Shown piece by piece: positions 16,282-32,528 of a DNA stretch of 64,000 bases (positions are counted from its first letter, which is position 1; every line of letters starts with the position of its first letter). The stretch spans positions 7,027 to 71,026 of the forward strand of contig JAOOBM010000002.1 of assembly GCA_028404505.1 (NCBI GenBank), given 5' to 3'. The position numbers and the translations under genes were made by a program. The stretch is from Acidimicrobiaceae bacterium (GTDB lineage: Bacteria; Actinomycetota; Acidimicrobiia; Actinomarinales; Actinomarinaceae). The notes under the pieces were generated by a model. The model was not told the DNA's origin, did not search any database, and saw only the letters and a list, made by a program, of their open reading frames with translations.

Positions 16282-16348
16282 ATTAAGATTTTATTATTTT
16301 AAAAATTATTTACAAGTACCAAAAGCTTTATAAATATATCATTTAGAT

Positions 16349-16445
16349 TAGAATCTATTCTAACCAAACTGAATTAGAATGAGTTCCAATTAAAGTTTAA
16401 TTAGAATCTATTCCATTTGAATCTATTCTATTTGAATCTATTCTA
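16349..16445. repeat. five copies of a 14-bp palindromic motif TAGAATCTATTCTA; the last three form 15-bp tandem repeats
   Basis: Copies lie at 16349-16362, 16375-16388 (degenerate), 16402-16415, 16417-16430 and 16432-16445. They sit in the largest non-coding spacer of the window (16282..16468). Confidence 0.8.
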
Positions 16446-16468
16446 GTCAAAATATATTTTTTTAATTT

Positions 16469-17335
16469 TTAATCCTTTATACACAGGGATGCATAATTCT
16501 CTAGGTATTCTCTCTCAGATACCTGCAAAACAAGATCATCTCTGTAATAAAGATAATCTCCCCCATAGTAAAGGACTAATGCGTCAGCAAATAATTCTTC
16601 ACTTCCAAAAAATTCTTGAGCTTTTTTTCTTTGATTCTCACCTTCTGAGTTGACACAGTTTCTTGTTAAATATGAAAGTGCGTGAGATGTTTCATGAAGC
16701 AATGTATTGTAAGCTCTATTATTAGCAAATGCTTTGTTTGAAACCCAGACTGATAATTTCCAATTTGAATTTGTTGAGCCATCTGGAAATGTTCCAGCTG
16801 AATCCCATACACCAAAAGGACATCTGCCCAAAATTGTAGCCGCGTAAGAGTGACAACCGTTTACAAATATGACATTATTTTCTACAGATTTTCTCAACTC
16901 TAAAGGTAAATTGGCAACTAATGTATCAAGGTTGAATTGATTTTCACCCTCAAATCCATCAAATGATATAAATTCACCCTCGTAAATTTTTATGTTTTCC
17001 GAATTATCCGAATTGAAGGCAACTGAGTCTTCTTTTTCTAGTACTTCAATTGTTGTTGTAGTTCGTGGAATTGTCGTTGTAGTTGATGTAGTAGTTGAGG
17101 AGGTAGTTGTAGTTGGTATAGTAGTTGTCGTCGAAGATGAGGTAGTAGTAAGTTGAATGGTAGTTGTCGTCGAAGATGAGGTAGTAGTAGTTGATGATGA
17201 AGTAGTAGATGTTTCAGTACTTCCAATATTAGCTTGAATACTTATCTCAATTGGATTATTTATTACATATATATAAGACAAACTAATGAATAAAACAATT
17301 AAAATGACAATAGTAACGGTTAATTTACCACTCAT
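16469..17335 (-). CDS. membrane-anchored Thr/Ser-rich protein with a C-terminal HExxH (putative zinc metallopeptidase) domain
   Basis: N-terminal TM helix, a poly-T/S linker of about 60 aa, then NGCHSY...LLHETSHAL...EELFAD. It is a clear paralog of 35238..36176. The start overlaps the upstream gene by 11 nt. Confidence 0.65.
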   Translation of the reverse strand: MSGKLTVTIVILIVLFISLSYIYVINNPIEISIQANIGSTETSTTSSSTTTTSSSTTTTIQLTTTSSSTTTTIPTTTTSSTTTSTTTTIPRTTTTIEVLEKEDSVAFNSDNSENIKIYEGEFISFDGFEGENQFNLDTLVANLPLELRKSVENNVIFVNGCHSYAATILGRCPFGVWDSAGTFPDGSTNSNWKLSVWVSNKAFANNRAYNTLLHETSHALSYLTRNCVNSEGENQRKKAQEFFGSEELFADALVLYYGGDYLYYRDDLVLQVSEREYLENYASLCIKD

Positions 17336-18905
17336 TTACTGATTCGCTAAGATCATCATCAACTAAATCTATAATTTCTTCATCATCAATCTTTAAACTT
17401 TCTTCATAGTCAGCGGGTCTATTCAATTCAGCATATTTTTTCATGAAGTTACCTAGTAGTAAAATTATGAATATATAAATTAATAAAACAAGCATGAATC
17501 TGTAAGCTAGCTCTCCACTCTGTAATAAAGTTTGTTGTAATTCATTAAATTCACTGTCAGGTGGTAAGACAAGGATTCTTATAAATAGCCAAATACTTAT
17601 CAAAAAGCTAACAATTGGCATTGCCTGATAAATTCCATCTGAGTCACCAATTGCATCAAATAACTCATTCCCTCCCCAAGGAACTGCTTTAAATATAACT
17701 CCCTCTAAACACATTAAGTAAGTAAGTTTACAAATTGCCATTAAAACACCTGAAGAGCTAACCGATTCAAATGATGTTGCGTAGAAGAAAAAATATCCAA
17801 CAATTGAAAGACTTATCATTGAATAAAATTTAGGTGACAATTCCGCTTTTGGTCTCTTCGAAACTACATGTATTGCTGCTATAAAACCAAGAATAAATCC
17901 AAAAGGAAGATCAATAACAATGAAGAGTATTGTTGAAAGTACTGCAAAAAACATGGCTTGTGGATTCCAATCAAATTTCACAATTTGGTCATACAGAAAA
18001 TATTCAATTAGAGATTCTATACCCTCATAAAAGAAGGTAACAATAATAAGTCCAAATAAGACACCAACAAAAATTGCTAAATTCTCTTGCCGTACTTGAA
18101 ATGTGAAGCCCTCCTCAACAAATGCATACAAGAGAGATGTAATTAGAGCCACAAGCGTTATCTCCATTGCTGTCTCAAGCCTTGTTTTATTTCTTAATTT
18201 GCTTTCACGATTTGACCACCTGACTCTATAGTATGCAATTATTCTGTTGAACCACTCCTGGGCGAGTAAAACTCCATAAAATAGAAATATAATTCCAGAA
18301 GTTATAAGAAATGCAAAAGCATTTTTAGCCTGATCTGAAAAATCAATATCACTGAAGAGTGGAATAGTTGTAATGAGCTCATTTGTGAATGTTATATTTG
18401 TTGATGTATCAATTACTGTTTCTTCAATAATAAAATCATCGACGGGAACAGTAGTAGTTATTACAGGAAGATCAGGAATTTTATTAATTATATACTCATC
18501 TGAAGTAATTTCAGTAGTAATGTCTCTATAACAATAAACCGAAGCGCAGTCCGGTCCACTATATTGTGTGTAGTTAGTTGATAAAATTTTTAAAATTATC
18601 GAAAGATCTGTAGTCCCATCCCATTGAATAATTTTTTGTCCTTTTTCAGAGTAATCGATAATCTCCAATGGTTCTCCTTGCAATCCATCAGATGTAAGTT
18701 CACGAACTGAAATAATCAATTCATCAATATTTTCAAGACCACTAACTAACCATGAAATTTGTAAATTATTTTCATCTAATCTTGCAGATTCTATTTCAAT
18801 AGTTGCTTCATCAGTATCATGTAAATTTGTATCTAAATATCCATTGGGGTATACACCGTTAAAAAAAGAAAAGAAAAAGATTAATGAAATAATTATTTTT
18901 TTCAT
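17325..18905 (-). CDS. polytopic membrane protein of unknown family (signal peptide, ~200-aa extracytoplasmic domain, ~8-9 TM helices, acidic tail)
   Basis: The start is placed at ATG 18905..18903, which shares one base with the sortase TAA stop (TAATG) and yields the signal-like MKKIIISLIFFFSFF. The ORF track extends to 18980. Confidence 0.7.
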   Translation of the reverse strand: MKKIIISLIFFFSFFNGVYPNGYLDTNLHDTDEATIEIESARLDENNLQISWLVSGLENIDELIISVRELTSDGLQGEPLEIIDYSEKGQKIIQWDGTTDLSIILKILSTNYTQYSGPDCASVYCYRDITTEITSDEYIINKIPDLPVITTTVPVDDFIIEETVIDTSTNITFTNELITTIPLFSDIDFSDQAKNAFAFLITSGIIFLFYGVLLAQEWFNRIIAYYRVRWSNRESKLRNKTRLETAMEITLVALITSLLYAFVEEGFTFQVRQENLAIFVGVLFGLIIVTFFYEGIESLIEYFLYDQIVKFDWNPQAMFFAVLSTILFIVIDLPFGFILGFIAAIHVVSKRPKAELSPKFYSMISLSIVGYFFFYATSFESVSSSGVLMAICKLTYLMCLEGVIFKAVPWGGNELFDAIGDSDGIYQAMPIVSFLISIWLFIRILVLPPDSEFNELQQTLLQSGELAYRFMLVLLIYIFIILLLGNFMKKYAELNRPADYEESLKIDDEEIIDLVDDDLSESVNEW

Positions 18906-31801: not shown

Positions 31802-31807
31802 TTTGAT

Positions 31808-31856
31808 TAGATTTGATTCTAATCAACTTATTTAAGTTTAACTAGAATCCATTAAA
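31808..31856. promoter_or_regulatory. two copies related to the TAGAATCTATTCTA palindrome, in the spacer between the TetR gene and the giant gene
   Basis: TAGATTTGATTCTA (31808-31821) lies within the inverted repeat GATTAGA-n6-TCTAATC, and TAGAATCCATTAAA lies at 31843-31856. Each matches the 16349 consensus at 11 of 14 positions. Confidence 0.4.
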
Positions 31857-31910
31857 AGTAAAGTTCATTGGTTAATAATTTTTTCCCGAATTTAGGATTT
31901 AATGATTGTA

Positions 31911-32528
31911 TCAGTACTGTTTGAGAATATTGTCTACGAGTTTTTCAGAAGTTTTGAGGAAATATTCATCTGTATATCTATTAAAAAGTACTTGATCGCC
32001 AATATTCAAAGCATACTCGAACATCGCTCCCCTGAATGCGGTTGCAATATTTAGGGCAATTTCATCTGCCTGATCTTTGTATTCATCAGTTGTGTTCAAT
32101 AACGCTGAAATAGCCTGCACTGGGTCTTGGTCTAGCCATTTATCAACTTTGATTAAATTAAACATTTGAGTTATTAGAACCTTGCCTGTGTACCCAAGGC
32201 TGATTAAATTTTCAGCGTAAGTTACAGGGATCTGTTTTATTTTTTCAATAGGACTTAAAGACTCATCTAGAATTGTTGCTCCCATATTTGCAGCAACATC
32301 CATTTTTGAATGCACTATAGCTGAATACACATCCTCCATCCTTTCAGGAAAATGGTTATATGCAGTTGCGGGAGATACTCCAGCCTCTTTAGCAATCTGT
32401 GTTAAAGTTACTTCCCTTATGTCTCCAACTTCATTAATTACTTGAACTGCTGTATTGATCAGTCTTTCCCTATTAAGGTCGTAAATATTTTGTTGCCTTA
32501 ATGCTCTTCCGTCTCTTATAGAAGTCAT
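31911..32528 (-). CDS. TetR/AcrR family transcriptional regulator
   Basis: N-terminal HTH: VTLTQIAKEAGVSPATAYNHFPE. Confidence 0.8.
   Translation of the reverse strand: MTSIRDGRALRQQNIYDLNRERLINTAVQVINEVGDIREVTLTQIAKEAGVSPATAYNHFPERMEDVYSAIVHSKMDVAANMGATILDESLSPIEKIKQIPVTYAENLISLGYTGKVLITQMFNLIKVDKWLDQDPVQAISALLNTTDEYKDQADEIALNIATAFRGAMFEYALNIGDQVLFNRYTDEYFLKTSEKLVDNILKQY

Follow-up and report, generated by a model that had tools for sequence, protein, structure and literature searches.

Giant repeat adhesins anchored to the cell wall by sortases, of both the LPXTG and the class E type, share an N-terminal signal, a tip, a run of Ig-like domains and a sorting motif followed by a transmembrane (TM) segment and a basic tail. 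The same layout is found in the product of a giant gene of Actinomarina, carried by a 64,000 nucleotide stretch of DNA from an Acidimicrobiaceae bacterium (GCA_028404505.1, contig JAOOBM010000002.1, positions 7,027 to 71,026 of the forward strand), here called the window. The present work describes the locus of this gene, which extends from a TetR-family regulator to a BASS-type transporter (15421-32528) and is probably an Actinomarina-specific surface-fibre locus, occupying a fixed site, recombining and hypervariable. As in LPXTG adhesin loci with a dedicated sortase, the sortase gene is found beside the substrate gene, and the sortase domain is closest to class E. From these systems the locus differs in the sorting motif, which is IPFTG, LPNTG or FGITG and not LAxTG, and in a sortase which scores under the class cut-off and carries two TM segments and a 300-aa RecA_C loop. 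It differs further in repeats that belong to no Pfam family and in the membrane protein and zincin that are coupled to the sortase.

A long Ig-like stalk with a tip, cut near its anchor end by a dedicated protease, is generally known from the LapA/LapG/LapD and MpIBP-type systems of Gram-negative bacteria. The outer-membrane plug, the type I secretion system and the Cys protease of these systems are unrelated to the proteins described here, and the likeness is functional only.

Proteases encoded beside a wall-anchored adhesin, as here, include PPEP-1 (Zmp1/CD2830) with CD2831/CD3246 in Clostridioides difficile and PPEP-2 with VMSP in Paenibacillus alvei (PMC8610288). PPEPs cut between the first two prolines of P-P-X-P, near the anchor of the adhesin encoded beside them, and have been reported from Clostridiales and Bacillales only (PMC8610288). 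Like them, the Actinomarina protein has an HExxH motif and a downstream EE-F-A-[ED] helix in register, and a P-P-X-P is found just N-terminal of the sorting motif of the giant protein. Known PPEPs are secreted or non-covalently bound to the wall (PMC8610288), whereas the Actinomarina protein has a TM anchor, a mucin-like stalk, four conserved Cys and a similarity to PPEPs that is sub-threshold. Its gene is co-oriented with and coupled to the substrate operon and not divergently regulated.

In its genomic behaviour the locus resembles replacement-type islands (Rodriguez-Valera and Lopez-Perez, cited in PMC7771536), in which divergent homologous surface genes at a fixed site lie between similar flanks and recombine. 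It differs from the fGI1/HVR of Actinomarinales, a tRNA-bounded glycosylation island of the additive type, in that it comprises one protein-fibre cassette and no tRNAs. Actinomarina ranks with the smallest and most abundant of the free-living bacteria in the sea; its genome of about 1.1 Mb is described as highly streamlined, and genome-scale studies of Actinomarinales give the single tRNA-bounded glycosylation island/HVR as its flexible part. In this genome-scale literature the words sortase, giant, LPXTG and adhesin are absent and the fibre locus is not mentioned. As judged from its sequences, the system appears to be a variant of sortase-anchored giant adhesin loci with three unusual parts, which are a RecA_C sortase, an FGLLP-like partner and a PPEP-like stalked zincin.

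Gene order and translational coupling

The genes on the minus strand follow in the order hom-thrC, then TetR-giant-sortase-membrane protein-HExxH-BASS, then rho-rpmE-DUF1385-prfA-prmC-tsaC-glyA-atp, as seen from a map of the open reading frames (ORFs) and their translations. The features of the block and its two direct flanks are as follows.

32573-33898, minus strand: thrC, left flank (Pfam)
31911-32528, minus strand: TetR-family regulator of 205 aa, first gene of the block (Pfam TetR_N)
31802-31860, minus strand: leader of the giant gene, candidate operator (palindrome and 14-mer, conserved across lineages)
20564-31801, minus strand: giant surface protein of 3745 aa (uninterrupted 11.2-kb ORF)
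30812-31639, minus strand: head domain of the giant protein, aa 55-330 (conservation; weak propeller hints)
20918-30811, minus strand: 29 tandem repeats of the giant protein, aa 331-3628 (Cys pairs, repeat alignment, model)
20567-20917, minus strand: linker and C-terminal sorting signal of the giant protein (read from sequence)
18905-20563, minus strand: sortase of 552 aa (Pfam Sortase and RecA_C)
17325-18905, minus strand: polytopic membrane protein of 526 aa (hydropathy)
16469-17335, minus strand: HExxH zinc metalloprotease-like protein of 288 aa (HETSH motif, homologue alignment)
16338-16448, strand not assigned: palindrome array upstream of BASS, 3-4 copies (repeat and motif scans)
15421-16281, minus strand: BASS/SBF transporter, last gene of the variable unit (Pfam SBF)
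13961-15310, minus strand: rho, right flank (identical protein on 72 blocks of contigs)

The stop codon of the giant gene abuts the sortase ATG at 20563 ('...TTT TAG ATG GCA'), the last A of the sortase TAA is shared with the ATG of the membrane protein gene ('GGA TAATG AAA', 18905-18903), and the stop of the membrane protein gene overlaps the HExxH start by 11 nt ('AATGAGTGGTAAATT', 17325-17335). The longest ORF of the membrane protein gene runs from 18980, yet the Met of its signal peptide is at 18905. This geometry is kept in the diverged alleles L085, L091 and L095 (L-numbers denote contigs or loci compared with the window, and figures given for them are relative to the window unless stated), whose giant genes are 59-84% identical to that of the window: the giant/sortase junction is TAATG or TGATG, the sortase/membrane junction TAATG or TAGTG, and the 11-nt overlap is retained. 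Such conservation in diverged alleles argues that the coupling is a selected feature and no coincidence.

The regulator matches Pfam TetR_N (PF00440; E 5.6e-7, 29.7 bits against a cut-off of 24) and the transporter Pfam SBF (E 3.3e-15). The backbone downstream of the block reads rho-rpmE-DUF1385-prfA-prmC-tsaC-glyA-atpIBEFHAG, and the typical actinobacterial order hom-thrC-thrB-rho is present in Streptomyces and Nocardia loci. The initial annotation of this DNA had given the same gene order and coordinates, the three tight junctions, TetR upstream, BASS downstream and collinearity with the actinobacterial backbone, all of which are borne out by ORF map, translations, sequence and Pfam matches, the BASS gene being moreover part of the variable unit. 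Its description of the contents as substrate, dedicated sortase, membrane partner and protease-like factor fits as well, the four-gene cassette being coupled and recurring as a tandem giant2-sortase2-membrane2 copy, and the combination, which it did not recognise as a described system, has no description in the Actinomarinales literature cited above.

Presence of the block and probable exchange of its alleles in Actinomarina

The block is found at the thrC-rho site in all 41 related contigs spanning it (10 rho-centred, 26 TetR-centred, and L091-L095). The rho protein of the window is present in identical form on TARA and other marine contigs and in the marine actinobacterial single-cell genome GCA_000384495.1, and the 10 contigs with identical rho carry giant-sortase-membrane-HExxH-BASS upstream of it, where their reach suffices. 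The 26 metagenome loci found through TetR have, again where reach suffices, the order GDPD-YqeY-HExxH2-hom-thrC-TetR-giant, with TetR between thrC and the giant gene in every one and thrC identities from 99% down to 55%. A metagenome-assembled genome (MAG) named Candidatus Actinomarina shows the same arrangement, as do L095 (rho 85%) and L123.

Similarity of the block is decoupled from similarity of its flanks, and this in both directions. In L085 the rho and prfA proteins are 100% and DUF1385 is 98% identical to the window, and the block proteins are at 87% (BASS), 72% (HExxH), 79% (membrane protein), 63% (sortase) and 59% (giant); DNA identity is 96-98% up to the rho/BASS boundary, then 79% at BASS and 61-78% beyond. 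In L118, on the contrary, the hom protein is 75% identical and the GDPD-hom DNA 58-72%, while DNA identity jumps to 83-88% at thrC and TetR, from about 33,800, and reaches 92-99% in the initial 4 kb of the giant gene; the head of the giant protein is up to 100% identical, and the DNA of the 5' part is at 95-99%. The flanks of L100 and L105 agree (thrC 87%, hom 76%), yet their giant alleles are 63% and 87% identical to that of the window, and the giant allele of L101 is a mosaic, with 86% over aa 1-465 and 59% after. Because DNA identity shifts there in L118 and L085, a left breakpoint near hom/thrC and a right breakpoint near BASS/rho are indicated by the sequences.

Overall, flanks which are 96-100% identical may surround a block at about 60-79%, and the opposite pattern also occurs. 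Divergent homologous content at the same site between conserved flanks, and incongruence of alleles and flanks, are thus seen in identity profiles, and are the signature of a replacement-type flexible island whose alleles would be exchanged between lineages by homologous recombination. The initial annotation had spoken of an accessory or flexible island. The first term, meaning presence or absence, is contradicted by the 41 contigs, none of which covers the site without the block; the second holds in that, at a fixed site, homologous recombination would put one divergent allele in the place of another, and not in the sense of gain or loss of the block.

A second tandem cassette, giant2-sortase2-membrane2, follows the HExxH gene in L091-L094 (about 14180-21665) and is not present in L123, so that cassette copy number varies. 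Its giant2 protein has a LANTG motif without PPxP beside it, sortase2 is without TM1 and RecA_C, and membrane2 has 23 fragmentary database homologues, which are fragments on short contigs only. In the four independent nanopore assemblies L091-L094 giant2 and sortase2 appear fused in frame (about 20030-20045), which is most likely a homopolymer artefact: a run of eight A followed by GGTTAG lies at the junction, and one base fewer gives ...RKKG-stop. A real substrate-sortase fusion is less favoured than a systematic homopolymer error, which is the probable explanation of this reading frame.

The block in relation to outgroups, base composition and thrB

A genome scan with a rho peptide pattern gave, among the matches listed, only distant high-GC Actinobacteria and no Actinomarina genome, and these genomes served solely as outgroups. 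The nearest Acidimicrobiia loci including thrC among these matches are L002, L004 and L005, with rho 63-75% identical and 60-65% G+C (about 33% in the window). In these three loci thrC is followed by rho after 183-334 nt, and neither thrB nor a relative of any block gene is present at the junction. As thrC directly adjoins rho there, the 17-kb block is an insertion relative to these outgroups. As they are without the block and also without thrB at this position, the absence of thrB is typical of the wider lineage and not due to the insertion. That the block is inserted between thrC and rho stands against these outgroups; that it displaced thrB does not. On the sequences compared, the insertion reading holds solely against distant outgroups.

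No match for thrB of the GHMP type or of the ApgM-like type was found in the 64-kb window. In the Acidimicrobiales MAGs L040 and L050 an ORF of 346-384 aa follows thrC which reads like a cofactor-independent phosphoglycerate-mutase-like protein and might act as homoserine kinase in place of thrB; nothing corresponding to it is present in the window.

The suggested check of G+C and tetranucleotides was run. G+C at third codon positions (GC3) is 0.17-0.22 in the sortase, membrane protein, HExxH and BASS genes, 0.28 in the giant gene, 0.29 in TetR and 0.16-0.24 in the flanks, and tetranucleotide distance is raised over the giant gene, where it coincides with the T/S/N-rich repeats. This signal is weak and confounded by the amino-acid bias of the repeats, and composition was dropped as a sign of foreign origin.

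The giant protein

T, S and N are abundant in the giant protein, whose 62 Cys are ordered in 29 regular pairs. The protein consists of a signal/anchor segment (aa about 30-48), a head of about 280 aa, 29 repeats, an acidic and Pro-rich linker and a sorting signal. The repeats, compared in a single-repeat alignment (A2), are about 95-165 aa long, are each bounded by a Cys pair C-x12-30-C and follow the consensus ...C-x13-C..G...ST..TN....YF.VQY...G.W...G...V..G.TI.W.Y...DC. Neither Pfam nor NCBIfam has a match for them. One repeat, modelled with AlphaFold2 on an alignment of the other repeats, comes out confidently as an all-beta sandwich (pLDDT 91.6), and searches with the repeat by Foldseek and by profile against the PDB returned generic Ig/FN3-like matches only, with a TM-score of at most 0.5 in Foldseek. 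By this model the repeats are predicted to form an Ig-like beta-sandwich stalk. An Ig-like domain measures about 3.5-4 nm, and a stalk of 29 such domains would extend over roughly 100 nm.

Conservation within the protein is highest in the head, which is 85-100% identical where the stalk is 50-70% identical. The head is probably a beta-propeller, although its fold is only weakly hinted at, by a Kelch_3 match of E 0.07 and by the designed Kelch propeller 7ong with a whole-sequence E of 8.6e-8. Lengths of the orthologues are near constant (3745 aa in the window, 3738 in L091, 3750 in L095), and the alleles, which differ by up to about 60% in protein sequence, are collinear down to 38% identity. 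Divergence rises toward the C-terminus, the cell-proximal stalk being least conserved.

The C-terminus of the window protein contains SPPTPG with PPTP (20669-20680), IPFTG (20651-20665), the hydrophobic segment GRNVGGLIISFGLMLIGFGAFIL and RRAFKF. This is the LPXTG-type layout, in which a pentapeptide with TG at its end precedes a hydrophobic segment and a basic tail at the extreme C-terminus, and the same tripartite signal is present in L085, L091 and L095, with the motifs LPNTG, IPFTG and FGITG, respectively. A PPxP precedes the sorting motif by 1-9 residues in all four primary-cassette C-termini (PPTP in the window and L091, PPIP in L085, PPLP in L095). L085, L095 and the window each have a different sorting pentapeptide, and their cognate sortases share only 61-63% identity, which suggests co-evolving pairs of sortase and substrate.

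The sortase with a RecA C-terminal domain

The catalytic part of the sortase matches Pfam Sortase (PF04203; E 1.6e-29, model positions 1-124 of 125) at aa 425-545 (18929-19291), and the motifs TLTTCHP and AGHR are read from its sequence, in agreement with the catalytic His, TLxTC Cys and Arg of this family. In the N-terminal part, aa 85-137 (20153-20311) match Pfam RecA_C (PF21096; E 1.2e-17, 64.1 bits against a cut-off of 27, model positions 1-53 of 57), and NCBIfam TIGR02012 (recA) aligns to the same segment at model positions 267-319. Hydropathy gives two TM segments, TM1 at aa 4-22 and TM2 at aa 327-345, both bordered by basic residues, which places the segment of about 300 aa that holds RecA_C in the cytoplasm and the catalytic domain outside. 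With regard to class E, the substrate carries IPFTG, LPNTG or FGITG in place of the LAxTG of that class, and LANTG is found in the substrate of the second module alone.

All of the at least 120 homologues listed (82-98% identical) carry both Sortase and RecA_C. A search with aa 1-420 against 1.84 billion cluster representatives gave three clusters whose match extends past the RecA_C segment, among them a complete protein with RecA_C and sortase at 57% identity, and ten further matches to the RecA_C segment only were, when scanned with Pfam, true RecA proteins or fragments in ten of ten cases. With this architecture in three clusters among 1.84 billion representatives, the fusion of RecA_C and sortase is indicated by sequence searches to be a lineage-specific innovation. 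On viral contigs no relative of the sortase was found.

The polytopic membrane protein

By its hydropathy the membrane protein starts with a signal peptide, exposes a domain of about 190 aa outside the cell, crosses the membrane about eight times and ends in an acidic tail. It has no Pfam match. With the NCBIfam model NF041501 (FGLLP motif-containing membrane protein) it scores 42.5 bits, E 4e-11, over model positions 29-178 of 312, which is below the cut-off of 150, and nothing relevant was found in the literature on 'FGLLP'. A paralogue follows sortase2 in the second cassette of L091-L094, which argues for a functional tie of the membrane protein to sortase and substrate.

The zincin-like HExxH protein

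The last of the four coupled genes encodes a protein with an LLHETSHAL motif (HETSH at 16682-16696) and an EELFAD motif downstream. Its homologues are few, 315 among 5.8 billion proteins, and all of them are anchored by an N-terminal TM segment, from which a T/S/P stalk of varying length leads to a domain of 190 aa. Invariant in the alignment of these homologues (A3) are H120, E121, H124, E152, E153, D157 and four Cys. Homologues P0218, P0222, P0224, P0231 and P0233 carry the precomputed Pfam accession PF27926, and the family may already be in a recent Pfam entry.

The HExxH motif and the downstream Glu in an EE-F-A-E helix, as in M34 proteases and PPEPs, are both present, and in a profile alignment HETSHAL and GSEELFADALVLYY fall on HETAHAI and PEEFFAESFAYYY of PPEP-1, in register. 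The best sequence matches in the PDB are all PPEP-1/Zmp1, at E 0.07-0.8 (phmmer 0.07, profile 0.5), which is not significant, and no match to Pfam ATLF was obtained. A pairwise comparison with the PPEP-1 core by hhalign gives a probability of 88.9% and an E of 2.4e-6. The core of the AlphaFold2 model has a pLDDT of 80-95, and Foldseek returns anthrax lethal factor and Certhrax first, with an E of 0.19 and TM-scores of 0.32-0.40 which are not significant. Lethal factor and Certhrax are of the same ATLF-like group as PPEP-1.

The adjacent substrate has the P-P-X-P that would be cut between its first two Pro (rule of PMC8610288), in the form of PPTP, PPIP or PPLP 1-9 residues before the sorting motif, and the candidate linker peptide holding the Pro-Pro site is DDSPPTPGIPFTG. 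That the HExxH protein is a PPEP-like protease releasing the fibre is the best mechanistic lead, although a tentative one to which we give somewhat less than even weight, membership in the family not being established.

A paralogue, HExxH2, has the lipoprotein signal LLAAC, an S/T/P stalk and the same catalytic domain, with 36% identity to HExxH1 in that domain. Every locus reaching that far carries HExxH2 upstream of hom, at 56-99% identity.

Regulation

The leader of the giant gene contains the palindrome TTAGAAT-CA-AATCTAA at 31805-31824, 4-21 nt upstream of the start codon, and GATTCTAGTTAAAC at 31836-31849. In the 64-kb window the palindrome TTAGAAT-N2-ATTCTAA is present only in this leader and in the spacer upstream of BASS (6 matches against 0.81 expected; 0 of 100 shuffles). 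The array before BASS (16338-16448) holds three to four copies, as GAATAGATTC repeats, and both spacers contain an exact copy of the 14-mer GATTCTARTTAAAC. Conservation of the leader extends to all 19 spacers long enough to show it, including those beside giant alleles which are 38% identical. L085 and L095 do not have the BASS array; their spacer between HExxH and BASS measures about 52 nt, and BASS may be co-transcribed there.

The shared palindrome and 14-mer look like operators of one regulon. The obvious candidate for binding the palindrome would be the adjacent TetR, with TTAGAATCAAATCTAA as its candidate target at the giant leader. A 14-nt inverted repeat flanking the TetR gene (31864-31877 and 32536-32549) was also considered as operator and rejected, being not conserved in other lineages. 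Scans for consensus promoters and terminators were uninformative.

Neighbouring genes

Beyond thrC and rho the following features were read from the window.

36769-37410, minus strand: GDPD-like gene (ORF map)
36308-36772, minus strand: YqeY (ORF map)
35238-36176, minus strand: HExxH2, HExxH paralogue (upstream of hom and not part of the block)
33899-35155, minus strand: hom (ORF map)
12719-13630, minus strand: DUF1385 gene between rpmE and prfA (ORF map)

A DUF1385 gene between rpmE and prfA is also found in the Acidimicrobiia outgroups L001-L006 and is absent there from most other Actinobacteria among the rho-scan matches listed. The sole Rfam matches of the window are a tmRNA gene (48721-49061, minus strand, 156.6 bits) and a tRNA gene (40362-40433, minus strand).

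Proposed function and alternative explanations

As a surface-fibre locus the block would work as follows. TetR would act on the palindrome upstream of the giant gene and, in the window, also on the BASS array, and the four coupled genes seen after the regulator would be expressed together. The product of 3745 aa, predicted from sequence and model to carry a signal/anchor, a head, 29 Ig-like domains and the tripartite signal of IPFTG, hydrophobic segment and RRAFKF, would be cleaved at its motif by the class-E-like sortase, made right after it from the same mRNA, and linked to the peptidoglycan, in line with the established sortase mechanism. The membrane-tethered stalked zincin might then cut the PPxP just before the sorting motif and so trim or release the fibre, a step we regard as possible but short of probable. 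Always present in Actinomarina, the block would persist as collinear alleles of the same length which are exchanged by homologous recombination.

Several points weigh against this picture. The giant C-terminus has no match to Pfam Gram_pos_anchor, and its sorting motif is non-canonical and variable between alleles. The best NCBIfam sortase model, class E (NF033747), gives 114.3 bits, under its cut-off of 160. The head, which would be the most exposed part, is the most conserved, and this does not fit simple escape from phage. Similarity of the zincin to PPEP/M34 is not significant database-wide, neither in sequence (E 0.07-0.8) nor in structure (E 0.19), and the hhalign comparison with the PPEP-1 core was made only after PPEP-1 had emerged as the best match. 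Pro-rich segments are common before LPXTG motifs anyway, and HExxH2 lies outside the block, so that the protease may have a general role. Finally, the outgroups are very distant (60-65% G+C), and give little hold on when and how the insertion took place.

The alternative that survives best concerns the zincin alone, which could be a general envelope enzyme, for instance one processing cell wall or lipoproteins, whose place in the operon would be incidental. The paralogue with lipoprotein signal outside the block in all lineages would agree with this, as would the sub-threshold PPEP/M34 similarity, the aligned PPEP-1 segment, which puts no Tyr at the position equivalent to the Tyr of 'VYPEE', and the fibre of the second module, which is without PPxP beside LANTG. 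On the other hand the gene overlaps the upstream gene by 11 nt in all alleles compared and co-diverges with the cassette (72% where rho is 100%), PPxP is conserved by the sorting motif, and the sole recognisable relatives are PPEP-1 and lethal factor. A general role is conceivable but somewhat doubtful.

Instead of an adhesin, the fibre itself could be a spacer or a coat that protects from phage or grazers or serves as a receptor decoy, its diversity being kept up by negative frequency-dependent selection. The extreme diversity of alleles swapped between lineages agrees with a coat, the conserved length (3738-3750 aa at identities of 38-88%) suggests selection on length as such, and the organism is planktonic and non-motile (PMC7771536). 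In a coat subject to receptor escape, however, the reverse of the observed gradient would be found, since the distal head is most conserved and the proximal stalk most variable, which is better explained by a ligand-binding tip. We hold the coat to be unlikely, though by no means strongly so.

Less still can be said for an ordinary core operon, inherited vertically, in which one gene evolves fast and the shifts of identity reflect relaxed constraint on a repetitive stalk. The block's presence at the same site in every Actinomarina contig examined, the GC3 of the sortase, membrane protein, HExxH and BASS genes, which matches the flanks, and the conserved gene length and domain order would all be explained. 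Such an operon could not account for the decoupling of alleles from flanks both ways (L085; L118; L100 against L105), as fast evolution is unable to make a gene more similar than its housekeeping flanks, and non-repetitive genes drop too, the sortase, HExxH and BASS of L085 among them. This explanation is improbable.

Least probable of all is a mobile or accessory island (the latter as in the initial annotation) recently acquired from outside the lineage, for although other Acidimicrobiia have no such block at their thrC-rho junction, the second cassette is present or absent by lineage and GC3 of the giant gene and TetR and tetranucleotide distance over the giant gene are slightly up, all block ORFs are accounted for with no integrase among them, no flanking direct repeats were found and no flanking tRNA (the nearest is at 40362), the sortase fusion and the HExxH protein have hardly any homologues outside Actinomarina (3 clusters at 50% identity; 315 in 5.8 billion), viral contigs carry no relatives, the tetranucleotide deviation falls on the repeats of the giant gene, and the block is there also where thrC is merely 55-63% identical.

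Significance for Actinomarina

The surface-fibre locus would mean that about 1% of a streamlined genome encodes one wall-anchored fibre with its own processing genes, and that Actinomarina has a second hypervariable site, exchanged by recombination and unmentioned in published analyses. The sorting motif, the candidate PPxP site, the candidate operator and the conserved head may serve as handles on how this uncultured planktonic oligotroph makes contact with particles, other cells or phages, and two unusual proteins, the RecA_C sortase and a PPEP-like zincin outside Firmicutes, are offered to biochemistry. Going further, the cassette could be a new machine for anchoring and release, with a RecA_C sortase, an FGLLP-like partner, the first PPEP-like stalked zincin outside Firmicutes and a fibre with a fixed length of 29 domains, traded between lineages with flanks about 70% identical. 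As a whole this is speculative and on present sequences rather unlikely. If true, the cassette would be the main protein surface determinant in one of the smallest free-living cells.

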